64,000 nucleotides of DNA from Roseibium sp. (lineage in GTDB: Bacteria; Pseudomonadota; Alphaproteobacteria; Rhizobiales; Stappiaceae), in assembly GCF_965216085.1 (NCBI RefSeq), contig NZ_OZ244138.1, positions 5,121,377 to 5,185,376 of the forward strand. The letters run 5' to 3'. How positions within the stretch are numbered: the first letter of the stretch is position 1; every line of letters starts with the position of its first letter. Below are positions 14,343 through 46,275 of the stretch, piece by piece. The translations under genes and the position numbers were made by a program. Below the pieces are notes generated by a model. The model made no database searches and was not told the origin of the DNA. It saw nothing but the letters and a program-made list of their open reading frames with translations.

Positions 14343-14771
14343 ATGAGAAGTATAGATAACGATTACAATAAGATATCCAAAAACAAGAAGACAAAGAAGG
14401 ACCCACCGTTCTCCCTGCGGCTGACGTTTGAAGAGCGCGCAAGGCTTGAAGAGCTGGCAGGCGATGAACCACTCGGTTCATATATCAAGCGAAAAGTGTT
14501 CGACGGAAAAGGTACGGGAACGAAAAGGGCGCGTTCACGCACTAGAAGGCCTATCAAAGACGAGAAAAAGCTGGCCTACGTCCTCGGTATGCTTGGTCAG
14601 TCCCGTCTTGCAAACAATCTCAATCAGCTCGCAAAAGCCTCTCACATGGGCACTCTACCCGTGTTGCCTGACACCGAACGGGATATCCGCCGTGCCTGCG
14701 CGGATATTGCGTTCATGCGGCGCGAATTGATGCGCGCTCTCGGTTATAGAACAGATACGGAGCCGTCATGA
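14343..14771 (+). CDS. mobC: MobC-like relaxosome accessory protein (ribbon-helix-helix)
   Basis: FSLRLTFEERARLEELA is an RHH beta-strand plus helix, and the NNLNQLAKASH motif is typical of MobC-family proteins. The gene overlaps the relaxase start (ATGA). Confidence 0.7.
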   Translation: MRSIDNDYNKISKNKKTKKDPPFSLRLTFEERARLEELAGDEPLGSYIKRKVFDGKGTGTKRARSRTRRPIKDEKKLAYVLGMLGQSRLANNLNQLAKASHMGTLPVLPDTERDIRRACADIAFMRRELMRALGYRTDTEPS

Positions 14772-22762: not shown

Positions 22763-25042
22763 TTAAGTTCGTAGTAAATTTGAGAACAGGCTTATCAAAT
22801 CGTCGTCATCAAACTTTTCGTTGCCTTGCCGCCTCGATGGTGAAAATCCGGTGCTGCGTTCCTCGTGATCGGACTCCTCAATTTCCGATATTCGGTCAAA
22901 CACCACTGATTTCGCCTCTTCAGGATCGCGACCGGTGAGTTTTGCGAGTGAATCCAGATAGTCTAGATGCTCGGTAAGACTGTCTTCGGTATCCAGATGG
23001 GATATGGCTTCTCCAGTGTTTGAAAATTCATACTCTATGGCATTTCCAAGGGCGTGTCCGGCAGGCGTAAAAGGCGTAAGAAATGTATCGGACATATACT
23101 CCTGAACACTCTCAGTAACGCTGACAAGCTCATCGGGCGGAAGTCCGTCTTCAATCACGTTTGTCAAACGTGCTTCAATAGCTTCCAAAAGCGTCTGTTT
23201 TTGTGAAACGTCGTCATCGACAAAATTACTCACCCACCAGTGAAGTTGTGGAAGGTCTCGCCCATCCCGCCACGAATTCAAACGCAATTTACTGGTGGCG
23301 AGCATAGATAAAGCCTTTTCGATATACTGCTCTTCACCGCAAGCTTCCCACCATTGAAGCAGCATTTCCGCCCGATCTGCTAGCGAAAGGTCGTCAGCCG
23401 AATAGCTTGCATATCCGTACCGCATGGATTTTTTCATTGATGGCGTGGCATCAATCATCTGGGAATATGAGCCAAACGCGCTGGCGAATTTCTTTTGGAT
23501 TTCAGGGTGAGACTTAAAAACTTCGCAGACGTGCCGCCATAGGTGTTTTGCCCAATCTGCTCTCCTGGCGGTTGCGGGCAAAAGCTCCAGAAATTCTTTC
23601 TCGATAAGGTACGACTTCAGGAAATCCCGGACGGAGGGATTAACAAAGCTAACAGTTTGGCCGGAAATAGAGACAAAACCGGATTCCAAAGATTTTAATG
23701 CGTCTTCAAAATCCCCTGGCTTTGTCGGCTGTCCATAGTGACCGCAAACAATCCGATGCAGTTTCGAAAAATTTTCACTCAATTCATCGACTTCTTGTCC
23801 ATATTCCGAGCCAAAGAACAGTGCGACCAGAAGGTTTTGCGACTTCATATCCAATGCGCGATATGGCTTACTCCAAACAAGTTCGGGATTTTCAAGGGCA
23901 TGATAGATGTAGCCAGGATAATCCGAAGGCTTCATTACATCGATGCTGTCACTCGACACGGACGCGATAATTCGGGGATTGTAGTTTTTATGGTCCACGA
24001 TCTTTTTCAGCCAATCGCCAACCAACAAAGCCTCAAAATGCTCCTGTTTTAGTTCGGATGCCGATAAGTGATTGAACAAGATTTGCGATCTGATTTTTCT
24101 GGTGTAAGCGCCGACATCTAGAATATATTTGGCGAGCTGTAATTTCTTGTCGTCAACGTGATCTGATAATCTTCTGGCTTCTTCGAAAATATGCGCCCTC
24201 GTGGTGAGGACGAACCGTGAATTCTTCGAACGTCGAATTCTGTTTACGAATGTCGCAAGTGCGGTATCGCGTTGAAGAAGCGATTGGCGGTCTAATTCAA
24301 TCCGCCCCAAAAAATCATCGAAGAAGAATACCGTTGGTTTTCCGTCATCGACCTTGGCAAATCCTTCTTCTAGCGAAGTAATGGCATAGAATTTCCACCC
24401 TTCTTCAAGATATTGATAGGATATCATTTTTGCTAGGGTCGTTTTGCCGACACCAGGAGGCCCTGAAACGATCAGGATTTTCTGGTCTTCGAGTCGTTTT
24501 GTGGCTTCTTCGAAGCTCGGATTTCGGACATACACACGAAGGTCGTCCAGAATCTCTTCTTTCGTTGCCTGCGTGAAAGCCTCAAGACCGGAATTGAGAA
24601 TGCGCTCCAAGACAGCAGTGCTGGATAGCCAGAGCTTGATGTGGGATTTTTCGATTTCCGGATATCGTGTGAGGGCTCCTTCAATATCTTCTCGCCCCCA
24701 GATATCCTCCGGCTGCTGGAGAATGCCGCTGGCGATCTCCGCAAGAGTATTGCTCTTTTTTTGCGTCAGCGACTGTGATGTAAAAAACAGATAACGTTTC
24801 GGCTTGAGATCGGAGACCTTCAGAACTTCCTTTTTGAGAGACGATTTCAGCGCCGTAAAAGTCGAGCCAATGTAATGCTTGCATTGCAGGATGGTCGCGT
24901 CCGCACCCCTTGAATGACGACCGTCTATTCCACCGTCCGGCCCTGGACCGAACGCTGAAAATCTTTTGCCGGTGTCCGCTTTGGCGATGTCGCGGCAAAG
25001 TTCCTCGAAATCGATGTGCGATAAGTTCTCAAGTCTCGACAT
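22763..25042 (-). CDS. Mrr-like restriction-endonuclease domain fused to a STAND-type P-loop NTPase
   Basis: The N-terminus FEELCRDI...GPDGGIDG...ILQCKHY is an Mrr_cat-type PD-(D/E)xK core. Walker A is SGPPGVGKTT (aa 193-202) and Walker B is VFFFDDFLG. A roughly 450-aa helical C-terminal region follows. Confidence 0.75.
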   Translation of the reverse strand: MSRLENLSHIDFEELCRDIAKADTGKRFSAFGPGPDGGIDGRHSRGADATILQCKHYIGSTFTALKSSLKKEVLKVSDLKPKRYLFFTSQSLTQKKSNTLAEIASGILQQPEDIWGREDIEGALTRYPEIEKSHIKLWLSSTAVLERILNSGLEAFTQATKEEILDDLRVYVRNPSFEEATKRLEDQKILIVSGPPGVGKTTLAKMISYQYLEEGWKFYAITSLEEGFAKVDDGKPTVFFFDDFLGRIELDRQSLLQRDTALATFVNRIRRSKNSRFVLTTRAHIFEEARRLSDHVDDKKLQLAKYILDVGAYTRKIRSQILFNHLSASELKQEHFEALLVGDWLKKIVDHKNYNPRIIASVSSDSIDVMKPSDYPGYIYHALENPELVWSKPYRALDMKSQNLLVALFFGSEYGQEVDELSENFSKLHRIVCGHYGQPTKPGDFEDALKSLESGFVSISGQTVSFVNPSVRDFLKSYLIEKEFLELLPATARRADWAKHLWRHVCEVFKSHPEIQKKFASAFGSYSQMIDATPSMKKSMRYGYASYSADDLSLADRAEMLLQWWEACGEEQYIEKALSMLATSKLRLNSWRDGRDLPQLHWWVSNFVDDDVSQKQTLLEAIEARLTNVIEDGLPPDELVSVTESVQEYMSDTFLTPFTPAGHALGNAIEYEFSNTGEAISHLDTEDSLTEHLDYLDSLAKLTGRDPEEAKSVVFDRISEIEESDHEERSTGFSPSRRQGNEKFDDDDLISLFSNLLRT

Positions 25043-25159: not shown

Positions 25160-25625
25160 ACATGTGCAGAGTCACATTTCAAAGCCCTGCGAGTGGTTTC
25201 AAGGGGCGCGATAGCCCTTTGATCGGGTTCAGCGTCGATACGCTGACGGCATCCAATCTGCGCAAGGTTGGTCTGGGTTCCAAGGGGCACGAAGGCTCTT
25301 GGTCGATGGGATGGTTCCAAGGAAGGGAGGCGCGAAAGCTCCCTTCTTGGTCAGGATTGCACAAGGGCAGGAACGCCCTTTGCTCTCGATGAAATCGTCT
25401 CCATGAAATGGTCTGGGGTCATGGGGGCAGGAACGCCGCCCAAGTCGATGGGTGCAGGGAGAGTGAAATCTCCCGCGAGTGGCTCAATCCGGCAATACGG
25501 GTTGGATGGCTCTGAAACGGGCTCAATGCCCTGAAAGAGCCAAGGCTAGAGGGTCCACGGGAGAGCGTAGCGTCTCCCTGGCAAGATCAGCGGGGGTACT
25601 ACCCCGCACATCTTGCGGGTGAGAG
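25160..25625 (+). ncRNA. candidate structured RNA or protein-binding hairpin array (unclassified)
   Basis: ORF-poor, GC-richer segment with at least 10 consecutive stem-loops, several closed by GNRA-like or GGA-containing loops. It also has degenerate repeated words. G-T pairs in the stems occur only when read on the plus strand. No known RNA family was recognised. Confidence 0.3.
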
Positions 25626-26193: not shown

Positions 26194-27720
26194 ATGTCAG
26201 ACAACCCCAAATCGAATGAAACTGAAATCACCCGCGCGGCGAATGAAGACCTATCAAGGGAAGCGGAGATTGTGACAGGGAACGTCAATGCAGCCCTGGC
26301 TCAAATCAACGAGGACCTGGGGAAAGAGGGGGCGGTCGGTGCGTTGGCCCGCGGCAAAATCTTCGAACTCACAAAGCATAGCGAGTGGGCAGCCAGATCT
26401 TACGAACTTGCTTACAGCCTCGATTCTACGAACCTTGAACCGTTGGCGCGCTTGATTGTCGCTCTCATTCACTGCGGAAAATTTCAAGATGCTCTCAACC
26501 ACTCATACCAGCTTACCGCAAAGGACCCGGCTTTTGCGGTCGTTTCATTGTGCCAGGGAGAACTGTACAGTTCGCATACACTTCTTGCGGAGTCACTGCT
26601 GTTAAACGATATGATCGATGAAGCTCGGGCTTCGTTTAACGAAGCACTGAAAATAAATCCTGAGGATTCCCTATCTGCTGGCAGAATGGCCCAGATTAGC
26701 CTCTCGGATGGGGAGATTGAGTCCGCCATCGAACTCGCAGCCAAAACTGGTGATTCTCCTCGGTTTAAGCAGTTGCGAGCAATGGCAACATTGGCTTCGC
26801 GAAACAGCTCAACCGTACCGTTCCTAAAGATTGAGACGATCCAAGAACTTGCTGGAACTGCTTCATCCGCCGTTGGTAGGCCCTTGTCGGTGGATGGCTC
26901 TCGCGTGAGAGCCACGGTGAATACTGAAACGGATTGGGGTGCATCATCAACTCCCGCTTCAAGTCATGCTTTGCCGCGAGACGTCGCCGAGCACTGGGAC
27001 GCTATTGCAATGGAGGAGCATTCATCAATCGCCTCGTTTGCACGGCTACTCCTCGAATTCATGCACTTCGGTGTACCAGCCAGCCTGGTGGACGAAACAA
27101 TTGCCGCAATGGCCGACGAAACCGACCATGCTCGCGATGCGTTAAAGATTTCCAGCCGCCTAAAAGGAGAAAACACAGGAGCGGGCACTCTTGATGTTTC
27201 CAATGTGTTGACGCGAAAGCCAGCTCTGCGGACGTCTGTTAGGGAAGCGCTCTTTGAAGGCTGCATTAGCGAAACGATTGGGGCTCTCGCCGCTCGAAAG
27301 GCAGCGGAAACATGCAAAGACCCGGAAATAAAGAAGACGATGCAAAAGATTTCAAGCGACGAATTGCGGCATGCGGAAGTAGCTTGGCATTTTATTGAGT
27401 GGGGCCTCGAGCTCGAGCCGACGCTAGTCGATGAGTTGACTCGGTTTTTGGAACTTTCGCTGGACGAATTAACGGAAGCGAGCATGTCGAACTGGCCGGC
27501 CAGCGCTAAAGAACCAACGCCTGACTATGGCGCGCTTAATCGTGAACAAATGGCAGAAGTGTCACGCGAAACCTTTTCTGAGTTCTTTTTACCGCGAATA
27601 AAGAAAATAATCTCCGCTGTTGAGCAAAAGAAACAACACTCACCAAATCTCGCATTAGAGCCGAAAAACAATGCCGCTGAACTTATCTCAATTTCTCCTC
27701 AAACGACACTTATCGATTGA
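26194..27720 (+). CDS. TPR-repeat protein fused to a ferritin-like (diiron, ExxH) domain
   Basis: GGAGG RBS upstream. The N-terminal ~230 aa are TPR-like. The C-terminal half has EEHSSIASFARLLLEF, DETDHA, EGCISET and DELRHAEVAWHF, which are paired E/ExxH ligand motifs as in 'ferritin-like domain-containing' proteins. Confidence 0.7.
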   Translation: MSDNPKSNETEITRAANEDLSREAEIVTGNVNAALAQINEDLGKEGAVGALARGKIFELTKHSEWAARSYELAYSLDSTNLEPLARLIVALIHCGKFQDALNHSYQLTAKDPAFAVVSLCQGELYSSHTLLAESLLLNDMIDEARASFNEALKINPEDSLSAGRMAQISLSDGEIESAIELAAKTGDSPRFKQLRAMATLASRNSSTVPFLKIETIQELAGTASSAVGRPLSVDGSRVRATVNTETDWGASSTPASSHALPRDVAEHWDAIAMEEHSSIASFARLLLEFMHFGVPASLVDETIAAMADETDHARDALKISSRLKGENTGAGTLDVSNVLTRKPALRTSVREALFEGCISETIGALAARKAAETCKDPEIKKTMQKISSDELRHAEVAWHFIEWGLELEPTLVDELTRFLELSLDELTEASMSNWPASAKEPTPDYGALNREQMAEVSRETFSEFFLPRIKKIISAVEQKKQHSPNLALEPKNNAAELISISPQTTLID

Positions 27721-28777
27721 TGCGATAACGGAGGGGCTTTGTGCTGCTTTGGGCTTTGAATATGGTGATATCCTGATTGCTGTTGGATCGCTCGCAGAAG
27801 AACTGGGAAACGAGCGATCCGACTTCGACATCATGCTCGTCACCTCACGCACGAACTTCACATTTACCTATCCAAACGTCATCGTGGCCACAATCGCGGA
27901 CATCACAGTTGATATCGCTGTTGTTCAAAATAGTTGGGCAACGCAGACGATAAACAAAATAAAGAGCTTTGGAGATAACTACACTGACCCTCGAAACGCA
28001 GGTGAATTCTCAAGGCAAGAAATACAGTTCCTTCACCGCGTGTGTAACTGTATGGTACTTGCCGGGCACGATTCCGCGAGCCAGTTGAGGGCTCAAATCG
28101 CCTTCTCCCATCTAATTAGACAGCGGTTCTCAAACGCGTTTCACGAACTCAAGTGCTTGGTGGTTGATCTCGTCGGGTTCGAAGAGGAACGGGATTGGCA
28201 GAGTTGCATAATGGTCGCTCAGTTAATCTTAGATTACTCCATTGAATGCTTACTTGCATCATTTCAGTTAACTAATCCAAGCGCTAAGTGGCGAGCGAGA
28301 CTGCTGGGAAAGATCCCGCAAAACTGGGAAGATCGTTTACCTGGAGCGTTCTCAAAAAGGAGCGCTATCACAGTCTATTATGACCTACTGCGTTCACCCA
28401 CAACCATCGATACAGAGAGTGCACAAATTTATTGTAATAAGATCTGCTCGTTTATGCGGAAAGTTTTAGCTTTAGGCAGTTGGCGCACTTCAAACGATAA
28501 AAATGATACTGATCTTCGTTGGTATCGTGGCGAAACAGGTGCATTAGAAACGTTTCCTGTTCTTGATAGTTCGATTTTCTTTTATTATCAGGAAGAAACC
28601 TTCATCGGCTTCAATCTAAGACACAAAGAGCCGTATCTCCACAAGCTCTCTCCCAAGGACGTCGGCTTATTGTGCTACTATGACGGTGGGACGCACGCCG
28701 TCCGTTCAACACCCGCTGTAGCTGAAATGGCCAAGAAATTGGGGATTTTGCAGCCATTGCGAGACGGTCCATCATGA
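27671..28777 (+). CDS. nucleotidyltransferase-fold (Pol-beta superfamily) protein
   Basis: GSLAEELGNERSDFDIMLV is the GS...D.D minimal NTase motif, followed by a helical C-terminal domain. The start is uncertain. ATG 27671 overlaps the upstream gene by 50 nt, and TTG at about 27749 has a GGAGGGG RBS. Confidence 0.6.
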   Translation: MPLNLSQFLLKRHLSIDAITEGLCAALGFEYGDILIAVGSLAEELGNERSDFDIMLVTSRTNFTFTYPNVIVATIADITVDIAVVQNSWATQTINKIKSFGDNYTDPRNAGEFSRQEIQFLHRVCNCMVLAGHDSASQLRAQIAFSHLIRQRFSNAFHELKCLVVDLVGFEEERDWQSCIMVAQLILDYSIECLLASFQLTNPSAKWRARLLGKIPQNWEDRLPGAFSKRSAITVYYDLLRSPTTIDTESAQIYCNKICSFMRKVLALGSWRTSNDKNDTDLRWYRGETGALETFPVLDSSIFFYYQEETFIGFNLRHKEPYLHKLSPKDVGLLCYYDGGTHAVRSTPAVAEMAKKLGILQPLRDGPS

Positions 28778-28789
28778 GAGTGAGGTGAC

Positions 28790-29752
28790 ATGGATAACGT
28801 AGTGGAGGCATTGCTTATTGAAATTGGGGGAACAAACATACGAGCCAAGCTGCAAGGCAAAGACCTAAAGTCTGAGATGGTTATAGCGAAGACCAATTCT
28901 TTCAAATCCCTTTGGCAAGTGATTAACAGATTCAAAAACTTGTTTCGTCTACCAAATAGTCTCAGTAGCGAAATCAATATCAAAGTGGCTGCAGCCGGCT
29001 GCCTTCATAATGGGCGTTTCCTTTCTGACGACATTAAGTGGTTGAATCGAAGCCACGAGGAGTTAGCGGACGAAACTCAGAAACTTGGTTTTCGCTTGCT
29101 ATTCATAATGAACGATATGATTGCTACTTCTAATGGATGGTTAGCTAGGGAAGTAGCTCGAGTTGGTTGTTCAGAAGTATCATGTCCAATAGGTATCGTA
29201 GGCATTGGTACCGGATTTGGTGTCTCATCAATTCATCGCATTTCAGAAACCCAGTTTCTTATCCTAAGCTCAGAGTTGGGTTTTCTCCCAGTCAGTCCTA
29301 GCAAAACGACTCGCATACGAGACGTAGTTTCTGGACGCGCAATAAATGCGGCATCAGTACTCACTAAATCGAGCATAAATGAGCAAACATGCATTGATGG
29401 CAGCATTACAACCGTCGACGACTATTGGCAGGAAAGAAACACTGATCCCGATTTTTTGGATCATTTTCGTTGGTCGGTACTCGCACCTATACTCAGCCAA
29501 AATCTCCAGAAAATAGTAATTGTGGGCGGTGCTGCGTCGATTCTTCGATCTCAAGGAATAATTTCGCCTGAGGACTTAAAGCAGAACTTCTCAAACCGCA
29601 ACATTGGCAGCATACAACCCATGATTAATGACGTAGACGTTTCCTTTGACAGCTCAGAGGACCTTGCTCTGTTTGGTATGACAGAGAGCATTGGCAGAGT
29701 TTCACAGGACTTCTTAGCTACTAAAAATCACTCGCTAGTAGTTGGCTACTGA
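28790..29752 (+). CDS. glucokinase-family (ASKHA) sugar kinase
   Basis: IEIGGTNIRA matches the Glk block DVGGTNARLA, MNDMIAT matches INDFTAV, and GIGTGFGVS matches GAGTGLGVA. A GAGGTG RBS lies upstream. Confidence 0.7.
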   Translation: MDNVVEALLIEIGGTNIRAKLQGKDLKSEMVIAKTNSFKSLWQVINRFKNLFRLPNSLSSEINIKVAAAGCLHNGRFLSDDIKWLNRSHEELADETQKLGFRLLFIMNDMIATSNGWLAREVARVGCSEVSCPIGIVGIGTGFGVSSIHRISETQFLILSSELGFLPVSPSKTTRIRDVVSGRAINAASVLTKSSINEQTCIDGSITTVDDYWQERNTDPDFLDHFRWSVLAPILSQNLQKIVIVGGAASILRSQGIISPEDLKQNFSNRNIGSIQPMINDVDVSFDSSEDLALFGMTESIGRVSQDFLATKNHSLVVGY

Positions 29753-29758
29753 TACGAG

Positions 29759-31240
29759 ATGGGTAGCGCAGCAGTAATGACTGTAAATGCCGGCGGTTCG
29801 TCGGTTAAAGTCCATCTCTTCGGTCGTGGAAAGCTTCCCGAAGCGAGTGCCTCAATTGCACAGATGGACATTTTGAGTCGAAGAGTAACTATTCGATCTG
29901 GAAGCGAAACAATCCGCGAGGAAACGGTTTATGGCACAGAAAGCTGGTCCTGCCACGATCTCGTTTCCGCAGTATGTTCCATCGTCAATTCTCGCCCGGA
30001 TATTAGGCCAGAAGTTATCGCGCACCGGGTGAAGTTTGCGAGAGAAAGGTCTCCGGTATGCGAATTCGATCGGAGAATCTACAACTCAGTTCTCTTAAAT
30101 TCAAATTTGGCTCGATTGCACAACCCGATCACGCTGGAATTGTACAACATTACGGAGAGGGCTTTTCCAGATGCGACGCAGCTCGCAATCTTGGACAGCG
30201 GTATATTCTTTAATGATGGATTGAGCGATAGTTGCCCCCTCCTACCCCAACGAATAAGAAATAGGTATGAACTGCGTTCAACTGGTCATCATGGACTGGC
30301 ATTGGAAGACGTAATCAACTCACTCGACCCACCGGTCGGGCTAAAATCTATATGCGTCCATATTGGTTCTGGCGCAAGCGTTTCTGGGTTCGTTGGGAAA
30401 GAACCGCAATTCAGCAGTATGGTCCACGCTTCTATCGACGGACCAATAATGAACAGTCGATCCGGATCATACTCAGCTGGCGCCGTGCTTAAAATGATGT
30501 CGAAGGGCGCCTCATTACGCACTGTCTCCGATCTTTTACATTCCCATTCAGGTATTTTCGCGCTTGCGAACCAAGAACTAGAAGACAGAACCATGGTGAA
30601 AGATACAATAGCGGACATCTATGATTCGCCATTTAATGTATATATAGCTTCCTTTATTCGTGAGATTGTATCAGCATATTCAGAATTAAGCGGTTGTGAC
30701 GTTATAGTTTTTTCTGGAGGTGTAGCGCGTTCGGGACCAAAAATCGTAAGGATGATTGTAGACTTTCTGAAACACATGGGACTTCGGGTTCCAAACACCG
30801 ATCCAATTCTTCTTCCCTGCAGACTCGACACCAGAAGTGGATGCGTTATCGCAGTTTGTAAGGAGGCGGAAGAGCGAGTGATAGCTGCCAAAGCCAGAAG
30901 CTTCGTTTTTCAAGAGGAAGCAGATTGGTATGAGTGTGATCTAGTTGTGCCCGGGCTGGCACGCGGTCCACTACTAAACTTGAAGACTACTGACAAAAAG
31001 CAGGTTAATGCGATTATCCTCACGGAAAAGTTGACTACTGCGGCAGCTCTTTCTGCCCAGCGTTTTGGAGGATTGATTGCCTTAACGGGTGACGCTCTTG
31101 GACATGGCGCAGCGATTTGCCGAGAGATTGGCCTACCAACGGTAATTTGCAGTAATGAAAGCGTGTTAGAACACTTAGGAAAAGAAGTGTTTCTTGATGC
31201 GACAGAAGGGAGAATAAGACTGTGCTCTCAAAACGAGTAA
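29759..31240 (+). CDS. acetate/butyrate-kinase-like domain fused to a PEP-utilising-enzyme mobile (phosphohistidine swivel) domain
   Basis: AckA-like blocks are present: VNAGGSSVKV, RLHNPITL, ILDSGIFF, GHHGLA, HIGSGASV and VIVFSGGVARSG. The C-terminal ~100 aa read NAIILTEKLTTAAAL...GGLIALTGDALGHGAAICREIGLPTVI, which matches the swivel-domain pattern around the phospho-His. Confidence 0.75.
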   Translation: MGSAAVMTVNAGGSSVKVHLFGRGKLPEASASIAQMDILSRRVTIRSGSETIREETVYGTESWSCHDLVSAVCSIVNSRPDIRPEVIAHRVKFARERSPVCEFDRRIYNSVLLNSNLARLHNPITLELYNITERAFPDATQLAILDSGIFFNDGLSDSCPLLPQRIRNRYELRSTGHHGLALEDVINSLDPPVGLKSICVHIGSGASVSGFVGKEPQFSSMVHASIDGPIMNSRSGSYSAGAVLKMMSKGASLRTVSDLLHSHSGIFALANQELEDRTMVKDTIADIYDSPFNVYIASFIREIVSAYSELSGCDVIVFSGGVARSGPKIVRMIVDFLKHMGLRVPNTDPILLPCRLDTRSGCVIAVCKEAEERVIAAKARSFVFQEEADWYECDLVVPGLARGPLLNLKTTDKKQVNAIILTEKLTTAAALSAQRFGGLIALTGDALGHGAAICREIGLPTVICSNESVLEHLGKEVFLDATEGRIRLCSQNE

Positions 31241-32091
31241 AAGAGCAAATTCTTTATTGCAACCGTCCGCAATACACTCTTTCAGTTTTGCAATCTGACC
31301 TCACCCGGCGATCATTCGACAACGCAGGCGAACAAATTCTTGGGCGGAAAGCGTTTATTCACACAGATGAAACCGGTCTCGTATGGCTACCCAAAGATCT
31401 TCTCGCCCCACAGCTGGTCGATTTCTTCATTAAGAATCCATCAAAGTTCTACAGTGCTGTCGAGTCCAGGATGATTGAGTATTGCCGGACGAGTGAATTG
31501 GTGCGAGCGGCCGAAATTTCTCGCAATACAAGTGTCACAGCACAAATGAAAGCGCTAAGAGGTCTTGCATACGCATATATTGGTTTGCTCAAGTATGTGA
31601 TTATTGGAAATCTACTGATCGAAGAAGTGATCGGTCGCTTTCAGCAACTATTAGCGGAGTTCGTTCCGAACGAGCTGGCGGTTCAACACCTTGACTCCCT
31701 GTTACGCTGTGACGCGGTAGCAAGAGCTATAGATTTGCAATTTTTTGAAGACATTCGAGGAACAAAGCGTATAGAGGATGTTACCTCTGCTCCAGTTCAT
31801 ATTTTTGGCGATACTCGTATTGTTCACTCTGTTCCTACCGACGACAACGTCAACAGCTTTCTATTGCAAGCTAAAGGCTGTATTTCACGCTACGCACCAC
31901 TTCGATTTATCGTCCCTGTTGTCTACCAGATGGCAGAGGAATGGAGATACGCGGATTATTCTTTAAGAACGCATTTACGCTATTATCTCGATTCGCTTCA
32001 GGCTCAACTTGGAATTCAAAAAAACCTCTACGCCATGACGTTTAGTGAATTAGAGGCGGAGTTCATTACGTATGAATGCAGAGCCAACTAG
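31222..32091 (+). CDS. hypothetical helical protein (possibly related to the linker or substrate region of PEP-synthase/rifampin-phosphotransferase-type enzymes)
   Basis: 289-aa ORF with a GTG start overlapping the upstream gene by 19 nt. Only weak resemblance was noted (the C-terminal ..NLYAMTFSELEAEF is like the D.F.LT..EL block). Confidence 0.45.
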   Translation: MLSKRVKEQILYCNRPQYTLSVLQSDLTRRSFDNAGEQILGRKAFIHTDETGLVWLPKDLLAPQLVDFFIKNPSKFYSAVESRMIEYCRTSELVRAAEISRNTSVTAQMKALRGLAYAYIGLLKYVIIGNLLIEEVIGRFQQLLAEFVPNELAVQHLDSLLRCDAVARAIDLQFFEDIRGTKRIEDVTSAPVHIFGDTRIVHSVPTDDNVNSFLLQAKGCISRYAPLRFIVPVVYQMAEEWRYADYSLRTHLRYYLDSLQAQLGIQKNLYAMTFSELEAEFITYECRAN

Positions 32092-32184
32092 TGGCGCGAG
32101 ATGTGGCCAACCACCAGTTTTTCGGAGTGCTCTGAGCCGGAAGTTTCATCGGAGCGGGTCAGCTCCTTTTAGACAAAACTAGTC

Positions 32185-33429
32185 TTACCAGTTTTCAGCT
32201 CGCAAAACGTGAGGTTCAAGCCAACGATCATTTGTGCTGTTCAAATAATAGTCGAGGTCGATATGGTGCGCCTGTAACATGTTGTGTAAAAACATCGTAG
32301 GTACCGTAACAGGAAATCTACCATATTTTGAATGCATATATGTTGCAATTCCTTTGACCACTTCAGTCTGTGCTTCACTTAGACCGAAGCCGGACGTAGT
32401 GATATTATCGTAGTCTTTTCGGAGATGTCCTTCACGCTGAAGGTGAGCTTCAATGAACGCTTTCTTGTTATTTAAAAGGCTGTCAAACGCACAATCCATT
32501 TCCTCGTAGTATGGAGGGCAGTATCCTTCGAGTATGCCATCTAATCCAACAATGTTTGGAGTCGAGTTTCCGGAATGTTTCATCGAACGAAACCCGAGCC
32601 CATTCTTTCGACCACGCCGACTTCCGCAAAGCACTCCGGCACTGTCAAAACCGGAGAACATCCAACCGCCAAGCCCCATTGCTTGTAAAACCAACATACC
32701 ATTGTGGCAGGCGATTGCCATCTCTGAAGCCGCAAGCGTTAGTGCGTTCCTCTCAATCGCGCTAACTGGCATTGCGCGCTGTAGATCCAACTTAACCTCG
32801 AGGTCGTGTATGTTTGGCAGCCGCTGCTGTGCAATATCGTCGACGACTGTCCCTCCATTCACAACGAGGAGGGCGATCATTTCTAAAACAATTTGCGACA
32901 TGTCACAAACTGGAAGTATCAACAAGCTACCTTCCACGTTTGCATATTTCAAATTGTGCGCTGAAATATACTCGGGCGCTATTCGGAGACGATTGCTCGT
33001 TAACTTGGTTGTAAATCCAGCGAGATCAATATTTGGCCCATTTACTTCTTCCACAGTATCTGGAAGTGGAGCTTCAACTGACCTCGATAGCACGTGTACC
33101 CCGGTGTCGTCGGTGAAGAAGAATGTGGTCGGATACCACCCACCTGCTGAAGGGTAGGTACGACCCATTAAATCTGAAGGTATGTGCTCAGCTTTTAAAG
33201 GATAGTCGGGATTCATTTCAACGAAATGAATCCACGAGGTCGATCCAGCAACGCAAGACAAAACGATTTTTGTCTCAAACGCGGTCAAGGCATCGTCGTT
33301 CGTTCCTCTTTGATCACCAGACCGTCCTGAGTTGGCCTGAATTCCCCGCGAAACTCTACGAGACCTTCGCCCTGATAAAGCGAGCATCAAAGGGTAACTT
33401 AAAAAACTCGAGAACCCTTTCTTCAACAC
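32185..33429 (-). CDS. nitroreductase-superfamily (SagB/ThcOx-like) protein
   Basis: LSGRRSRRV near the N-terminus, YPSAGGWYPTTFFF (the PSAGxxYP motif) and LQAMGLGGW are all typical of the nitroreductase/SagB fold. An AGAGGAG RBS precedes the GTG start. Confidence 0.55.
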   Translation of the reverse strand: MLKKGFSSFLSYPLMLALSGRRSRRVSRGIQANSGRSGDQRGTNDDALTAFETKIVLSCVAGSTSWIHFVEMNPDYPLKAEHIPSDLMGRTYPSAGGWYPTTFFFTDDTGVHVLSRSVEAPLPDTVEEVNGPNIDLAGFTTKLTSNRLRIAPEYISAHNLKYANVEGSLLILPVCDMSQIVLEMIALLVVNGGTVVDDIAQQRLPNIHDLEVKLDLQRAMPVSAIERNALTLAASEMAIACHNGMLVLQAMGLGGWMFSGFDSAGVLCGSRRGRKNGLGFRSMKHSGNSTPNIVGLDGILEGYCPPYYEEMDCAFDSLLNNKKAFIEAHLQREGHLRKDYDNITTSGFGLSEAQTEVVKGIATYMHSKYGRFPVTVPTMFLHNMLQAHHIDLDYYLNSTNDRWLEPHVLRAENW

Positions 33430-33502
33430 TTAGCTCCTCTTTTTGTACAGATCGTTTATGCATTCACTAAGGCAATTTCGCAGACCTCTTTGATCGCCAA
33501 AA

Positions 33503-34636
33503 CTAAACAATGAAAGGGTCTGCTCGCGACTTCGCTAGAAACTCAGTCCGCGACGCGTCGTCAATTCGATCAATCGGTAAAGCAACTCGTTCATCAATCT
33601 CAATACCACTATCTAAAACTGACTTTGTCTTACTCGGACTCATTGAATACCACTTTCTAATTTCTTTAACCCCGAGCCAATGAAGGACGTCTATTGCTAA
33701 ACTGTGTTCTCTGCAATCCGAACAATCTGAAATAGCGCCCGTCCATTCAAAATATCGATCTTCGCTGTCTTTGAGACCAGATGACATGCGTAAGTTGTAT
33801 ACTAAGTACTTTATTACTTCACCGAGAGCCCGCCCCTCGTTTCTGAAATACGCAATGATTCCAATGCCGCCGGACTGAGAAAATTTTATACACTCCTCGA
33901 CAGAAAACAGAAGATAAGGACGACAAGAACAAAAATCGGACCCAAATACGTCCGAAGAAGTGCACTCATCATGAATACGACAAGCAACTCCGCGATCTAT
34001 TTTCGATTTAGATTCAATATTTCCGAAAATATATAGACTAATATTACCAACTGGCGGAAGAAAAACATTAACTTCCGGATTATCTTTGAGCGCGGGGGAA
34101 AATAATGAAAGTTCTTCTCTGAGCTCCTGCACTTCGAGGCCCAACCGGGCTGCCACTCCAGGTAAGTACCAAACCTGCTCAATCGCTATTTTAGTCACCT
34201 TCGCATGACCCGTTTTGCTAAGTATCAATTCGTCTGCACTGAGTAAACCTCGCTCTATCGCTATGCGAACTTCTGGAAACCAAACTACGCCCCGAGTAAT
34301 AGCAATTGTTGGTCTATGGTAATGGTCTGACGGATAGGTTCTTCCAAATTTGTCTATTGACAAATGGCCCCAGGGATCGAAAGACACGATAGTGTTATTG
34401 CGGCACCATTGCGGAAACGGACCAATTTGAACTCGAGGTTCCGTCCCTTGGAAATCTGGACGAAAGCCTAGTTTCTTTGTTTGGCCCCGACGAGCAATTG
34501 TCTGAAAAACCGCATGAGGCCCGCCGTATTGCCCAATTGCGTTGTAATCCGTATTAGGGAACAGTATTATCGGTCCCCTTTCAACTGCTGTGGGCGCGTT
34601 CCAATTAAGTTCACCCGGGGTTCGACCCTGCCTCAA
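33503..34636 (-). CDS. GTP cyclohydrolase II-like enzyme with a ~200-aa N-terminal extension
   Basis: VACRIHDECTSSDVFGSDFCSCRPYL parallels the RibA zinc/GTP block VRVHSECLTGDvFGS.RCDCG.QL. GIGIIAYFRNEGRALGEVIKY parallels GvllYLRQEGRGIGL.NK. The TTG start overlaps the Rieske stop (TTGA). Confidence 0.75.
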   Translation of the reverse strand: MRQGRTPGELNWNAPTAVERGPIILFPNTDYNAIGQYGGPHAVFQTIARRGQTKKLGFRPDFQGTEPRVQIGPFPQWCRNNTIVSFDPWGHLSIDKFGRTYPSDHYHRPTIAITRGVVWFPEVRIAIERGLLSADELILSKTGHAKVTKIAIEQVWYLPGVAARLGLEVQELREELSLFSPALKDNPEVNVFLPPVGNISLYIFGNIESKSKIDRGVACRIHDECTSSDVFGSDFCSCRPYLLFSVEECIKFSQSGGIGIIAYFRNEGRALGEVIKYLVYNLRMSSGLKDSEDRYFEWTGAISDCSDCREHSLAIDVLHWLGVKEIRKWYSMSPSKTKSVLDSGIEIDERVALPIDRIDDASRTEFLAKSRADPFIV

Positions 34637-34932
34637 TTTTCAACCTCATTCGATTGATCCTCAGCTTTGTTATCGCAGATAGGCTGCGGAATTAGACGAA
34701 GCGTCGTCGGACGGGCGATTAATTGTTCAACATGAAAAATCTTATGATGCATAGGGCATTCAATCCTATCACCGGTTAAATACAACCCGTGCTTAAGCGA
34801 CCCCGAACGATGGGGGCAAGCATTTTCAACCAAAAATAAATCTCCGTTATAGCACAAAATCACGTATTCAATATCTCCTTGGACTATCCGCGGTAATGAG
34901 TTTCCTAACCAATTCGACGAGAGGGTATTCAC
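34633..34932 (-). CDS. small Rieske [2Fe-2S] protein (NirD-like size)
   Basis: CPHRSG...(x17)...CPMHH is the Rieske CxH...CxxH motif. GTG 34932 overlaps the upstream stop (GTGA) and is preferred. The longest ORF starts at 34974. Confidence 0.75.
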   Translation of the reverse strand: MNTLSSNWLGNSLPRIVQGDIEYVILCYNGDLFLVENACPHRSGSLKHGLYLTGDRIECPMHHKIFHVEQLIARPTTLRLIPQPICDNKAEDQSNEVEN

Positions 34933-36152
34933 TGTCTCGTTTCCCGTCCTAAAGTGCCCGGAGGAAACTGACAAAAGTCCGACGGATCTCGGAGAGCTCC
35001 AATTCCACCAACTTGCAAACTACAAGCGTTACAAGACTGAATAGTCTGTGCCATCATGCTTGGCGTAAAACAATTTTCACTTGCAGAAATACTTTCATCC
35101 AATCCGTAGCTCACTGCTCCACTATCCGCTAATATATTAAAAACCTTACTCACATTGAGCAACTGATTACCAAACTCTTTAAACGTCTGTTGAGTGGCTG
35201 ATATTCCCGCCATAATGTCTATCTCTGCCTGCCTTCCAAATTTTTCAGCCAGTGGGATTGCCACCTCATCCAAAACCATCGACGAATGATGAATATCGAT
35301 GTGCGCATGTTCTGCGAAGTAAGTCGAATCAACTTCTGGATGGTGTCTCTTCAAATACAAATAATTCTGTTTCGTAGACTTCTGATAGGAACTTTCTGCA
35401 TAAATTAAGAAGCCAAGCTGAAGAAAAAAGTTTCGCGGGTTCTGGAATAAGTGGTGAATAAAATTATGCAATTTAAAGGTGTTAATATCGAATAAATACC
35501 AATAATGATTGTAATTCGTACTCAAGTGGAATCCCTCGAGCGTTGAACGGAAGAGCGAGCTGTGTTTCTTTTCAAAGGAGCCGTACCCGAATTCGTCGAT
35601 TAACACGCGAAAAAGAACTGATTGGGCTGGGCCATAGTCGCCCACAACTCCCAAGGCCGAAGCCGATGCTTCAGCAAGCAGATCGCTTGATGATTGGAGC
35701 AGAAAATTACGATAGTAATCCTTGCGTCTTTCATTATTTTCAAGAAATGTAATGAATTCATTCTCTGCGTTCATATCGAGTTCCGAACTCACATCCGACA
35801 AGAACTCCAAAAAACTCAACCGCTCAACGAGCTCGTAAGCAGTTCCGATTTCAGGTGTTATCAGTTTCTTCTCTATTGATGACTGCAAGTTAGAAAAGCC
35901 GCATCGTTCCCTCAGATCGTGATAGGCGTTAAATTCTTCCATACTTGTTTCCTGCACCTTTGGAAGTAAGACGTAGCGTCCTTGGTAACATCGAAAAAGT
36001 ACTTGATGCAGAACAAGGTGATAAAGCTCTATATTGTCGGATTGCTCTGACGGAATTGAATCAATTCGTAAGTCATATTCAGGCAAAACGGTTTGACCGG
36101 AGTGTCGAGAAATCAGTTTACTGATCGTGTCAATTTCTTTTTTGAACTTCAT
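34929..36152 (-). CDS. haem-oxygenase-like fold 'iron-containing redox enzyme' family protein (HDO-like)
   Basis: 407-aa all-helical protein. The block TYFAEHAHIDIHHSSMVLDE, together with upstream E/H-rich helices, is typical of the PF14518-type / CADD/PqqC-like diiron family. The assignment is by eye only. Confidence 0.55.
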   Translation of the reverse strand: MKFKKEIDTISKLISRHSGQTVLPEYDLRIDSIPSEQSDNIELYHLVLHQVLFRCYQGRYVLLPKVQETSMEEFNAYHDLRERCGFSNLQSSIEKKLITPEIGTAYELVERLSFLEFLSDVSSELDMNAENEFITFLENNERRKDYYRNFLLQSSSDLLAEASASALGVVGDYGPAQSVLFRVLIDEFGYGSFEKKHSSLFRSTLEGFHLSTNYNHYWYLFDINTFKLHNFIHHLFQNPRNFFLQLGFLIYAESSYQKSTKQNYLYLKRHHPEVDSTYFAEHAHIDIHHSSMVLDEVAIPLAEKFGRQAEIDIMAGISATQQTFKEFGNQLLNVSKVFNILADSGAVSYGLDESISASENCFTPSMMAQTIQSCNACSLQVGGIGALRDPSDFCQFPPGTLGRETRQ

Positions 36153-36845
36153 TTAGGATGACCGCTCATAAACAGTAATAGGCACGCCAGAAACCTGGTA
36201 GAGTTCGGTAAGGGTCCACTTAGATACTCCGCAGTCCTCCGAATATACATTCGGGCCAAAATACGTTGGTGCATCAGTGTTTCCGCAGACAACTGGAATA
36301 TGTTTTATTATTACCCTTCTCAATAGTTTAGAAGAGAATACTGTGTTCAAAACTCTGGATCCTCCCTCAACAAGAATCTTGAAAACATCGAATCTCCGTA
36401 ATTGCTCAGCTAACTCGCCAAAATTGACTGTATCGCCTCCGGCAACAAGGACTGTAACCGCCGGGTTCGATTGAAGAACTTCGATCTGGTTCGCTGATGC
36501 TTTCCGAGAAGTTGCAACTATTGTCGGAAGTCCGTCGGTCAGGACATTGCACTGTCTCGGCAAATTGCCGTCAGAAGATAGGATTACTCTAACTGGGCTC
36601 TTGCCCTCAAAGTGACGGGTGGTCAGAAGCGGGTTATCAGACCTTATCGTTCCAGCGCCAACCAAGATTGCATCATGTTCCGCTCTCACTTTGTGGAACC
36701 AAGACTTTAGATCCGATCCATAGAATTCGAAGAGCTGTTTGCTGTTGAACCCTGGACCGAGCGATATACGTCCATCAATGGTCAACTCGGTCAGTGTTGT
36801 CACTTCTGTTGAACGCATTTCTTTTTTCAATCGAACTCGACGCAT
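36153..36845 (-). CDS. RibD C-terminal-domain (DHFR-like) pyrimidine reductase family protein
   Basis: ELTIDGRISLGPG, DAILVGAGTIRSDNPLLT and ILVEGGSRVLNTVFSSKLL match the RibD_C reductase pattern. Its stop abuts the next start (TAAATG). Confidence 0.7.
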   Translation of the reverse strand: MRRVRLKKEMRSTEVTTLTELTIDGRISLGPGFNSKQLFEFYGSDLKSWFHKVRAEHDAILVGAGTIRSDNPLLTTRHFEGKSPVRVILSSDGNLPRQCNVLTDGLPTIVATSRKASANQIEVLQSNPAVTVLVAGGDTVNFGELAEQLRRFDVFKILVEGGSRVLNTVFSSKLLRRVIIKHIPVVCGNTDAPTYFGPNVYSEDCGVSKWTLTELYQVSGVPITVYERSS

Positions 36846-37793: not shown

Positions 37794-37861
37794 GCTAACG
37801 AGATCCTGCGCAAGGCGTCTGCATATTTTGCGCAGGCGGAGCTCAACCGCCCACTGAAGCG

Positions 37862-38767
37862 ATGATTCCTTTCATCGATGAGCTTCGTCCGGTGTTCGGG
37901 GTCGAGCCGATTTGCAGAGTTTTGCCTATTGCCCCGTCGACTTTTTACGAGAGTATTGCCAAACGGGTGGGCATGGATCGCCTGTCGGTCCGCGCTCGCC
38001 GCGATATCGCCCTGAAGATCGAGATACGTCGTGTGTTCGAGGAGAACTTCCGGGTCTATGGCATGTGCAAGATCTGGCGGCAATTGCAGCGAGAGGGTTT
38101 TGATGTTGCTCGTTGCACCGTGTCCCGGCTCATGAGGTCCATAGGGCTTCAGGGGTTCATCCGTGGCAAGCCGGTGAAGACGACGTTTCCGGACAAGTCG
38201 GCACCCAGTCCAATCGACCGTGTGAACCGCCAGTTCAGGGCACCAGCGCCGAACACGCTCTGGGTTTCGGATTTCACCTATGTCGCCACCTGGCAGGGTT
38301 TCGTCTATGTCGCCTTCGTGATCGACGCGTTTGTGCGGCGCATTGTCGGATGGCGCGTCAGCCGGACGGCGCATGCGGCCGTTGTCCTCGACGCCCCGGA
38401 ACAGGCGCTTCATGATCGGCGGCCCGCTCGGGGTGGCGGCCTGGTGCATCACTCCGACAGGGGTGTTCAATACGTGTCGATCAGGTATTCGGAGCGACTG
38501 GCCGAGGCGGGAATTGAACCCTCAGTCGGGAGTGTCGGAGACAGCTACGACAATGCTCTCGCAGAAACGATCAACGGTCTTTACAAGATCGAGGTCATTC
38601 ATCGGCGTGGGCCGTGGCGCAGCTTCGAAGCCATTGAGTTTGCTACCCTGGAATGGGTCGACTGGTTCAACCACCGCCGTCTTCTGGAGCCAATAGGAAA
38701 CATCCCTCCGGCTGAAGCAGAGGGACAATACTACGCCACGCTGGATCAAACGGCCGTGGCTGCATAA
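37862..38767 (+). CDS. IS3 transposase orfB (DDE/rve integrase core), in the -1 frame relative to orfA
   Basis: LWVSDFTYV, HHSDRGVQYVS and DNALAETINGLYKIE are the D, D and E regions of the rve domain. It is normally expressed only as an OrfAB frameshift fusion. Confidence 0.85.
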   Translation: MIPFIDELRPVFGVEPICRVLPIAPSTFYESIAKRVGMDRLSVRARRDIALKIEIRRVFEENFRVYGMCKIWRQLQREGFDVARCTVSRLMRSIGLQGFIRGKPVKTTFPDKSAPSPIDRVNRQFRAPAPNTLWVSDFTYVATWQGFVYVAFVIDAFVRRIVGWRVSRTAHAAVVLDAPEQALHDRRPARGGGLVHHSDRGVQYVSIRYSERLAEAGIEPSVGSVGDSYDNALAETINGLYKIEVIHRRGPWRSFEAIEFATLEWVDWFNHRRLLEPIGNIPPAEAEGQYYATLDQTAVAA

Positions 38768-39304: not shown

Positions 39305-39707
39305 GGGCTGTCACAAAAAATATGTTTGACAAACGTGAGACTTTTCTCTCACGCTTATAGTTAATGGGATCATCCAACTAGCTCTCCCAAGAGCAAGATT
39401 CCAATACTTGGCATTCGTCATAGAAAGCTAAGTAAAAGCCATAAGGACAGGTATGCTGTCCATTCTTGGAGGTGAAAGACCTCTGCACCGCACGCGCGGT
39501 GCGATGCGCTGAATGGCGGCGCGGGCAAAAATCAACAGAGCCGGGGCATGAGCCAGGGTTCACCGAGTGTTTGAACGACCAACGTTCAAACACCCGGAGG
39601 CTAAAGCTGTTTTCAATTTGGTTTCCCGATGTTGGGAAGAACACGGTCAGGGAAGAAGGAATTTCAGCGGAAGGGTCAAGGAGCGAAAAGGAAAGGGAGC
39701 AACAGAA

Positions 39708-46264: not shown

Positions 46265-46275
46265 GCTAAGGCCCC
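46200..46275 (-). tRNA. tRNA-Ala (anticodon GGC)
   Basis: The reverse complement is GGGGCCTTAGCTCAGCTGGGAGAGCGCTTCGCTGGCAGCGAAGAGGTCAGGGGTTCGATTCCCCTAGGCTCCACCA. It folds as a cloverleaf with the G3:U70 Ala identity pair, anticodon loop CT-GGC-AG, a GTTCGATTC T-loop and an encoded CCA. Confidence 0.9.

Follow-up and report, generated by a model that had tools for sequence, protein, structure and literature searches.

The subject of this study is a stretch of 64,000 nt from the chromosome of Roseibium sp. (hereafter the window), in which ten intact open reading frames (ORFs) at positions 26194 to 36845 form one convergent cluster: p1 to p5 lie on the plus strand and p6 to p10 on the minus strand. 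We find that this cluster is not a single orphan unit but a mosaic, the modules of which are also found elsewhere. It is rated as a biosynthetic operon whose superfamilies are known but whose combination is undescribed, and its architecture for swivel-histidine phosphotransfer is new. No description of either gene set (the minus-strand core or p1-p5) was found in the literature. The genes, and the region in which the two strands meet, are as follows.

26194 to 27720, plus strand: p1 (WP_420412399), TPR protein with a putative ferritin-like diiron four-helix domain at its C-terminus (TPR_2/TPR_19; Rubrerythrin 23.3 bits, cut-off 22.8)
27671 to 28777, plus strand: p2 (WP_420412400), Pol-beta-type nucleotidyltransferase (NTase) with a helical C-terminal region (motif G39-S40-x10-D51-x-D53)
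28790 to 29752, plus strand: p3, glucokinase-like ASKHA kinase (Pfam Glucokinase E 5e-9, N-terminal half only)
29759 to 31240, plus strand: p4 (WP_420412402), acetate-kinase-like ASKHA domain fused to a phosphohistidine swivel of the phosphoenolpyruvate (PEP)-utilizer type (Acetate_kinase E 6e-26; PEP-utilizers, PF00391, E 6e-7)
31222 to 32091, plus strand: p5 (WP_420412403), novel all-helical protein and obligate partner of p4 (no Pfam family)
32092 to 32184: convergent intergenic region from the p5 stop to the p6 stop (93 nt, sequence read)
32185 to 33429, minus strand: p6 (WP_420412404), enlarged nitroreductase-superfamily-like protein (PF00881 match below threshold, 16.5 bits against 23.5)
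33503 to 34636, minus strand: p7 (WP_420412405), long-form (URC1/UrcA-type) nucleotide cyclohydrolase (GTP_CH_N E 2e-46, GTP_cyclohydro2 E 5e-13)
34633 to 34974, minus strand: p8, small Rieske [2Fe-2S] ferredoxin (Rieske E 5.5e-8)
34929 to 36152, minus strand: p9 (WP_420412407), SznF-type heme-oxygenase-like diiron (HDO) N-oxygenase without cupin (Haem_oxygenas_2, PF14518, E 2e-22)
36153 to 36845, minus strand: p10, RibD_C-type (ribosylamino to ribitylamino) NADPH reductase (RibD_C E 2e-32)

The tightly packed, convergent layout had already been proposed from the sequence alone (the original prediction), and each ORF was recovered at the position given there. Intergenic gaps range from -50 to +12 nt in the plus-strand set and from -46 to +73 nt in the minus-strand set, and 93 nt separate the two stop codons where the strands converge. 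Most of the predicted domains were also found by Pfam or NCBIfam; p2 was recovered by its motif only, and the nitroreductase call for p6 stayed below threshold with weak fold matches. As predicted, the Pfam scan of the ten ORFs gave no transporter, no regulator and no nonribosomal peptide or polyketide synthase domain. Since a crude count detects no hydrophobic 20-residue stretch in any of the ten proteins, all of them look soluble and no integral-membrane transporter is apparent.

The minus-strand core is built around p9. A profile of the p9 family aligns with the central HDO domain of SznF (chains 6m9r and 6vzy) over about 277 residues at an E-value of 7e-50. All seven metal ligands listed for SznF (E189, E215, H225, E281, H311, D315 and H318; PMC13133933) have their counterpart in p9 (E161, E187, H197, E253, H282, D286 and H289), and these residues are invariant in 14 family members. 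With SznF and related HDO N-oxygenases (RohS, HrmI/BelK), p9 shares the domain, the full ligand set, including the seventh Glu that is typical of N-oxygenating HDOs, and the aux-alpha2 Asp. The latter is the invariant D157 of p9 (motif SDLLAEAS), the counterpart of SznF D185, which binds the substrate ammonium and whose replacement in D185L causes a ~4000-fold loss of rate (PMC7848743). Overall, p9 is best read as an N-hydroxylating diiron enzyme.

Unlike SznF, p9 ends without the C-terminal mono-iron cupin domain that carries out the N-nitrosating rearrangement: no cupin is found by Pfam, and the alignment with SznF stops at residue ~352. The remaining tail of roughly 80 residues holds no invariant His. 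Because the cupin is absent, no N-N bond-forming (nitrosating) step would be expected of p9. The surroundings differ as well, as the cluster holds no methyltransferase or arginine-pathway genes, and p9 never comes without a small Rieske ferredoxin and a RibD_C reductase and often has a nucleotide cyclohydrolase beside it. This pairing points to a substrate for p9 that is derived from a nucleotide rather than from arginine. More than 350 full-length homologs of p9 were found, the best non-self match being 48% identical; cyclohydrolase, Rieske or RibD neighbours are not mentioned in the chalkophomycin paper in which SznF homologs were mined.

The Rieske protein p8 carries the motif C53-x-H55...C73-x-x-H76 (CxH-x17-CxxH), and its NCBIfam matches are ferredoxin subunits of dioxygenases. 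The listed TTG start gives a protein of 113 aa and a 46-nt overlap with p9; the alignment with homologs begins at about residue 19, and the true start probably lies downstream of this TTG. In either case p8 is of ferredoxin size (about 85-113 aa) and has no catalytic domain, so that the three iron oxidase types of the original prediction were an overstatement. Homologs of 83-86 aa come after the HDO gene in every locus, unless a contig end intervenes. Most likely p8 is the electron donor to p9 and not a third oxygenase.

The third core protein, p7, is annotated by NCBI as a hypothetical protein in spite of its two unmistakable cyclohydrolase domains, because its score (378.5 bits) falls just below the cut-off of 403 for the NCBIfam equivalog NF005536; it is also below the cut-offs for RibA. 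Its zinc Cys triad (C225, C236 and C238) is in place. The closest structures are PDB 7EJ3 and 7EEV (E 1.7e-91), with 43% identity to the 7EJ3 chain, and the cyclohydrolases of related operons in other genomes (see below) are 54-59% identical to it. In short, p7 has the GTP_CH_N plus GTP_cyclohydro2 architecture and the intact triad of the URC1/UrcA UTP cyclohydrolases, but it stands below the equivalog cut-off in a biosynthetic-looking operon and has no URC4, URC6 or urea-amidolyase partners. UTP cyclohydrolase is named as the enzyme of the URC pathway in PMC12507026 (its reference 14), where Zhang et al. (ACS Catal 2021) is cited in connection with this pathway, and URC1 chemistry yields ribosylurea, through which the pathway runs, together with a C3 acid (PMC7530994). 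If 7EJ3 is a UTP cyclohydrolase, as we assume, the match of p7 to it suggests UTP instead of GTP as a possible precursor. Membership of p7 in this family makes the predicted GTP-derived product doubtful.

The reductase p10 has no deaminase domain. It scores 102 bits with the archaeal-type reductase model TIGR01508, and its closest PDB entries (6p8c and 2azn) are diaminoribosylaminopyrimidinone-5'-phosphate reductases. Its nearest relatives are archaeal and fungal reductases that act ahead of deamination. In the window the RibD_C, HDO and Rieske genes are translationally coupled, and the p8 stop and the p7 start overlap by 4 nt.

This core is not restricted to Roseibium. Context look-ups together with a scan of reference genomes yielded 61 loci (L001-L004 and L008-L064; an example is L003:9336-13232) with what we call the canonical operon, nearly all of them in Caulobacterales, Hyphomicrobiales and Rhodobacterales and including Rhizobium, Phenylobacterium, Caulobacter-type and Rhodobacterales genomes. 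The order is invariant: RibD_C, HDO, Rieske and then a CDP-alcohol phosphatidyltransferase of ~190-200 aa, which no canonical locus lacks if it extends far enough. In about half of the loci the next gene after the transferase encodes a long cyclohydrolase, and no further neighbour recurs in more than about 11 of them. The order RibD_C-HDO-Rieske is kept in 61/61 canonical loci, in L068 (a metagenomic contig discussed below) and, on one strand, in the window. The transferase has the motif D-x2-DG-x2-AR...G-x3-D-x3-D, and its nearest named families (PgsA, ClsA and PIP synthase) all score far below their cut-offs. Our search of the accessible literature turned up no account of the canonical operon, which is a candidate for making phospholipids with a new head group.

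In the window, RibD_C, HDO, Rieske and cyclohydrolase are ordered and oriented as in the canonical operon, at 42-48% identity, but there are four differences. First, the PgsA-like membrane transferase is missing: a tblastn search of the 64 kb with the transferase from L003 gave no match for this family (PF01066) at E <= 10, and the gene is also absent from L068. Second, the HDO belongs to a separate deep branch. Third, the GC content is low. Fourth, the operon is accompanied by p1-p6, which no canonical locus has. Judged from gene order and similarity, p10-p9-p8(-p7) is a variant of the canonical operon without lipid transferase. The label of an orphan cluster holds for the full ten-gene combination only; it fails for the minus-strand core, since at least 60 loci in Alphaproteobacteria have an operon of which this core is a variant.

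On the plus strand, p1-p5 is an extremely rare set, and the architecture of p4 is itself very rare. The motifs of its kinase part (NAGGSSVK, HRV and HIGSGAS) and of its swivel (GHGAAI, with His449) are intact. A word-index search of 5.8e9 proteins returned only three other proteins with this architecture, and an exhaustive search with p5 led to two further loci that encode it (L069 and L070), so that p4 homologs are now known from L005, L006, L007, L069 and L070. In 5/5 of these loci a p5 homolog lies directly downstream. The p5 family itself is small (24 representatives only among 1.84e9 proteins), and in 6 of the 10 distant homologs that were scanned the p5-like region is fused to a PEP-utilizers swivel domain, which argues that p5 works directly with the phosphohistidine domain of p4. 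The AlphaFold model of p5 is all-helical (pLDDT 94); a fold search against the PDB gave no significant match, although rifampin phosphotransferase recurs among the weak ones, and a PDB profile search was uninformative.

The mobile swivel domain with its catalytic histidine motif is common to p4 and to PEP synthase, pyruvate phosphate dikinase (PPDK) and rifampin phosphotransferase (RPH). In these enzymes, however, the swivel is served by an ATP-grasp domain (PPDK_N), which p4 replaces by an acetate-kinase-like ASKHA domain; the PEP-utilizers_C TIM barrel is lacking, and the acceptor p5 is a separate helical protein. Neither PPDK_N nor PEP-utilizers_C is found in p4 or p5 by Pfam.

The only complete set of homologs of p1-p5 is found in L005, where all five genes are syntenic, in the same order and 31-54% identical; scans of JGI metagenomes with p5 and p1 returned nothing at the sensitivity used. 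For p1, this contig holds the only homolog (54% identity), which retains the ExxH motifs (309 and 390) as well as glutamates 275 and 360. A PDB search with p1 retrieves TPR proteins and designed diiron bundles only, and the profile of its C-terminal domain is uninformative. The p2 motif and D81 are invariant between p2 and its L005 homolog. Pfam gives no match for p2 and the PDB profile search was uninformative; a more distant homolog in L070 (27% identity) has a weak match to PF01909 (NTP_transf_2). For p3, which has the phosphate-1 motif EIGGTNIR, the PDB search identifies glucokinase 3vpz (E 7e-5) and the L005 homolog is 31% identical.

Two of the other loci show these genes in a different setting. 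In L070 (1067-7446) and L006 (1783-10670) the NTase, AckA-swivel and p5 genes occur among genes for a SIS isomerase, a class II aldolase, AP_endonuc_2 and a Ru5P (ribulose 5-phosphate) 3-epimerase, and the same clusters also hold G1PDH/DHQS-like, GlcNAc 2-epimerase and HisD-like genes. They look like clusters for the activation of cyclitols or rare sugars, and because the NTase, p4 and p5 homologs sit here among enzymes of pentose-phosphate type, a general role of these three in activating sugar or polyol phosphates is suggested. As a separate observation, the region just upstream of the p1-p5 homologs in L005 (1591-4095) encodes an 834-aa protein with a kinase and a LanC-like part, which is similar to class IV lanthipeptide synthetases and is matched by the MADS MAD6 kinase model as well.

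The remaining protein, p6, belongs to a large family; at least 989 homologs were found, which span many phyla and lack any Pfam domain. An alignment-based AlphaFold model (pLDDT 75, pTM 0.80) was compared with the PDB by Foldseek; the 50 listed matches are almost all of the FMN-nitroreductase superfamily, yet weak (E 3e-3; TM score 0.29 on the query and 0.58, overall 0.5-0.6, on the target).

Given that the modules occur apart in many genomes, the question is whether they are linked. Outside the window, the sub-modules are physically associated in pairs in other organisms. L005, with the complete p1-p5 set, and L068, with the closest homolog of p9, come from the same metagenome sample (SRR23272331, contigs 19835 and 8352); L068 encodes RibD_C-HDO-Rieske without transferase and without cyclohydrolase. 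An 11-nt sequence is common to the 3' end of L005 and the beginning of reverse-complemented L068, and the two ends pair as arms of one perfect 19-bp hairpin, whose 19-mer occurs nowhere else among the 70 fetched loci. Joining the contigs would recreate the convergent arrangement of the window, and both contig regions have a GC content of ~0.467, like the window cluster. Because their ends form one hairpin, p1-p5 of L005 very probably converges on RibD_C-HDO-Rieske of L068.

The HDOs of the window and L068 form a deep branch of their own, apart from the canonical clade, and the transferase-less core accompanies p1-p5 in both known cases, whereas the canonical form never does. A third sample (SRR22356420) adds L069, in which p4 and p5 (both 41% identity) face a converging p6 homolog (35% over 392 aa). 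The original prediction would have fallen if its genes did not co-occur outside this genome; p1-p5 with RibD_C-HDO-Rieske in SRR23272331 and p4-p5 with p6 in L069 show that they do. On the grounds that p1-p5 and the core co-occur in SRR23272331, that their HDOs group together and that p6 recurs beside p4-p5, the modules appear functionally linked.

The cluster is embedded in a region with the following features.

14768 to 16180: MobA/VirD2 relaxase
20005 to 22470, minus strand: LmuB-like SMC ATPase (PADLOC LmuB 92 bits; further match to MADS mad3)
22763 to 25042, minus strand: Mrr_cat plus nSTAND3 protein (candidate system PDC-S73, 435 bits)
37820 to 38767: IS3, with its ALIL frameshift element (pseudoknot) at 37820 to 37936
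39567 to 41495: type IV coupling protein
46200 to 46275: tRNA-Ala(GGC)

These surroundings look like an integrative conjugative element (ICE) with defence cargo, and the cluster like further cargo on this ICE-like island, although no repeat of the tRNA-Ala end that would mark the island boundary was found inside the window. Both of the boundaries that had been pointed out are real. On the left, about nine short GC-rich hairpins with GNRA-like loops (25180 to 25620; z = -4.5) stand between the STAND defence gene and p1; on the right lies the IS3. Rfam gives no match for the hairpin array, no conserved counterpart of it precedes the p1-p5 homologs in L005, and the region upstream of p1 has no conserved element or precursor peptide in common with that contig. 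A scan for promoters and terminators returned fewer sites than in shuffled controls.

The AT-richness noted earlier was confirmed (GC 0.42-0.51 against 0.52-0.60 outside). The GC content is 0.42-0.47 for p2-p10 and 0.51 for p1, and the GC content at third codon positions (GC3) of the cluster is 0.39-0.52; the flanking ICE and host genes have 0.52-0.59 and 0.54-0.71, respectively, and to the right of ~47 kb the GC climbs to 0.57-0.60. Both values are equally low in the two strand halves. In an exact-sequence look-up, p1, p2, p4-p7 and p9 gave 100% matches to one genome (accessions between WP_420412399 and WP_420412407), and at 90% identity all seven are singletons. The 11 kb had no match among E. 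coli genomes and plasmids by megablast. All in all, the cluster fits the horizontal acquisition that had been proposed, given the low GC and GC3, the setting of ICE, IS and defence genes and the singleton status of the seven checked proteins.

Taking these observations together, the interpretation that we put first, at about even probability, is a horizontally acquired composite biosynthetic cluster in which three recurring sub-modules act on one metabolite. As a first step, p7 would hydrolytically open the base of a nucleoside triphosphate (NTP) and release pyrophosphate; by homology the substrate would be UTP, with GTP possible, and the product accordingly N-(5-phosphoribosyl)urea or a diaminopyrimidinone. 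Using NADPH, p10 would then convert the ribosylamine to a ribitylamine, after which p9 would N-hydroxylate a ureido- or guanidino-type nitrogen with O2, receiving its electrons from the dedicated Rieske ferredoxin p8. At the fourth step the routes would part: in the canonical operon the PgsA-like CDP-alcohol phosphatidyltransferase may couple the polyol phosphate to lipid, whereas the window would use the soluble p1-p5 instead.

In the window, p3 and p4/p5 would next phosphorylate the intermediate. Here the AckA-like domain of p4 might load His449 of the swivel, which would pass the phosphate on to a substrate held by p5, much as in rifampin phosphotransferase or PEP synthase with the ATP-grasp swapped for an ASKHA kinase. 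Subsequently p2 would nucleotidylate the intermediate, while p1 (TPR-diiron) and p6 (as a nitroreductase-like flavoprotein) may contribute extra redox tailoring. The pathway would thus end in a soluble ribityl compound that is N-oxygenated and phosphorylated or nucleotidylated and that might act as an antimetabolite. As regards the product, the original prediction of an oxidatively tailored and phosphorylated or nucleotidylated small molecule remains the best reading.

Several points weigh against this interpretation. The substrate of every enzyme, the product and the chemistry are ones that we infer from sequence. With respect to the precursor, the PDB molecule name of 7EJ3 is "GTP cyclohydrolase II", and we assume that 7EJ3 and 7EEV are the enzyme of Zhang et al. 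(ACS Catal 2021), the UTP cyclohydrolase UrcA; the link from the PDB entries to that paper is unconfirmed. Since about half of the canonical operons and L068 do without a cyclohydrolase, the precursor may also come from primary metabolism, for instance as the RibA product, which would favour GTP. The diiron assignment of p1 and the flavin assignment of p6, made from sequence and from a structural model respectively, are both weak. Finally, the junction between L005 and L068 rests on the 11-nt overlap and hairpin complementarity, with no spanning read, and a repeated terminator resembling a repetitive extragenic palindrome (REP-like) could mimic it.

The strongest competitor is a pair of operons that would be functionally unrelated and adjacent by chance on a mobile island, namely a degenerate, transferase-less copy of the canonical operon and a separate sugar- or polyol-activating operon, with p6 as a stand-alone gene. 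No homolog of p1-p6 was found within 10 kb of the canonical operon in any of the 61 loci (0/61), from which we had at an early stage read the cluster as two unrelated operons; that reading was overturned by the sub-modules co-occurring elsewhere. It is also true that L006, L007 and L070 have p4-p5 without HDO, RibD_C or Rieske genes, beside sugar-phosphate or chorismate enzymes, that the three p6 relatives inspected (L065-L067) stand alone in varied, unrelated contexts, so that the linkage of p6 could be opportunistic, and that an island with IS and defence genes is prone to mosaicism. Against this, both complete p1-p5 sets (in the window and in SRR23272331) come with the transferase-less HDO trio, with contig ends that fit convergently, p4-p5 converges with p6 again in L069, the two linked HDOs form a separate clade, and GC and GC3 are the same on both strands. 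A chance neighbourhood thus seems unlikely, though it deserves more weight than any of the other alternatives.

Considerably less probable is an anti-phage or nucleotide-depletion system, a role that had been thought conceivable, which upon infection would act either through destruction of UTP or GTP by the cyclohydrolase or through a modified nucleotide from the NTase and kinases. The cluster does adjoin the LmuB-like ATPase and the PDC-S73 Mrr-STAND gene on the ICE, and two of its enzymes, the NTP-consuming cyclohydrolase and the Pol-beta NTase, would suit such a role. Yet none of the eight proteins scanned (p1-p7 and p9) has a match in PADLOC 2.0 at E <= 0.01, and scans with p9 and p5 detected neither module in viral contigs. 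No neighbour recurs widely at the canonical operon, and three contexts inspected gene by gene are without obvious defence genes. A sensor or effector-type domain is missing from the cluster, and the O2-dependent N-oxygenase, the reductase and the lipid transferase fit biosynthesis better.

By a small measure less probable still is a variant URC-type pathway of pyrimidine (or a pathway of purine) catabolism that salvages nitrogen. It would account for p7 as a member of the URC1/UrcA family, with ribosylurea as the intermediate of the URC pathway (PMC7530994). By Pfam, however, the ten ORFs lack domains of URC4 (DUF1688), of urea amidolyase, of uracil phosphoribosyltransferase and of transporters, and the first three do not recur as neighbours of the canonical loci either; the N-oxygenase, NTase, kinases and canonical phosphatidyltransferase have no role in catabolism, and the cyclohydrolase is missing from about half of the canonical operons.

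The least probable alternative starts from GTP and leads by a divergent pathway to a flavin, lumazine, toxoflavin or F420-type product: GTP_cyclohydro2 plus RibD_C does correspond to the first two riboflavin-type steps, as in RibA and RibD/Rib7 and in ToxB and ToxE of the toxoflavin pathway, and operons without cyclohydrolase could use the RibA product, but Pfam and NCBIfam reveal no RibD deaminase, RibB, RibH, RibE, ToxA-type methyltransferase or CofC/D/E/G/H in the ten ORFs, the downstream lumazine, riboflavin and toxoflavin enzymes are lacking, and the cyclohydrolase is of the long URC1/UrcA type, below the RibA cut-offs of NCBIfam. For toxoflavin, the absence of ToxA methyltransferase or any other matching domain (as for ToxC and ToxD) from the ten ORFs refers to Pfam domains, the Tox protein models themselves not having been searched. 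Riboflavin, toxoflavin and F420 biosynthesis and URC catabolism were rejected on gene content, in line with the original prediction, which a riboflavin, F420 or toxoflavin operon would have refuted; likewise no PADLOC defence system fits the cluster.

Returning to the composite biosynthetic cluster, its most far-reaching form is doubtful. In that form the product would represent a new class of nucleotide-derived antimetabolites, a sugar- or ribityl-(N-hydroxy)urea or an N-oxygenated aminopyrimidine made from UTP or GTP via a cupin-less relative of SznF, and activated by a previously unknown type of phosphotransferase that passes phosphate from an acetate-kinase fold via the swivel histidine to p5. 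N-hydroxy- and N-nitroso-ureas and 5-nitro- or nitroso-ribitylaminopyrimidines are potent antimetabolites, and for this reason the product of the cluster could be bioactive. If true, a streptozotocin-like sugar-urea pharmacophore would be reached by a different route, and the canonical operon of at least 60 Alphaproteobacteria would put the same head group on a phospholipid, that is, a new lipid class.

For the enzyme families involved the implications are twofold. We know of no native reductant for the SznF-type HDO enzymes; the p8-type Rieske partner is a candidate for it, and would be the missing reductant if the above holds. The combination of ASKHA kinase, phosphohistidine swivel and p5 would furthermore constitute a new arrangement for swivel-histidine phosphotransfer. 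For the Alphaproteobacteria, the analysis brings forward a widespread operon that joins a streptozotocin-type N-oxygenase to a Rieske ferredoxin, a ribityl-forming reductase, a URC1-type ring-opener and a lipid-head-group transferase. In the Roseibium variant a rare soluble kinase and nucleotidyltransferase module takes the place of lipid anchoring, which may provide a route to a soluble form of the product.

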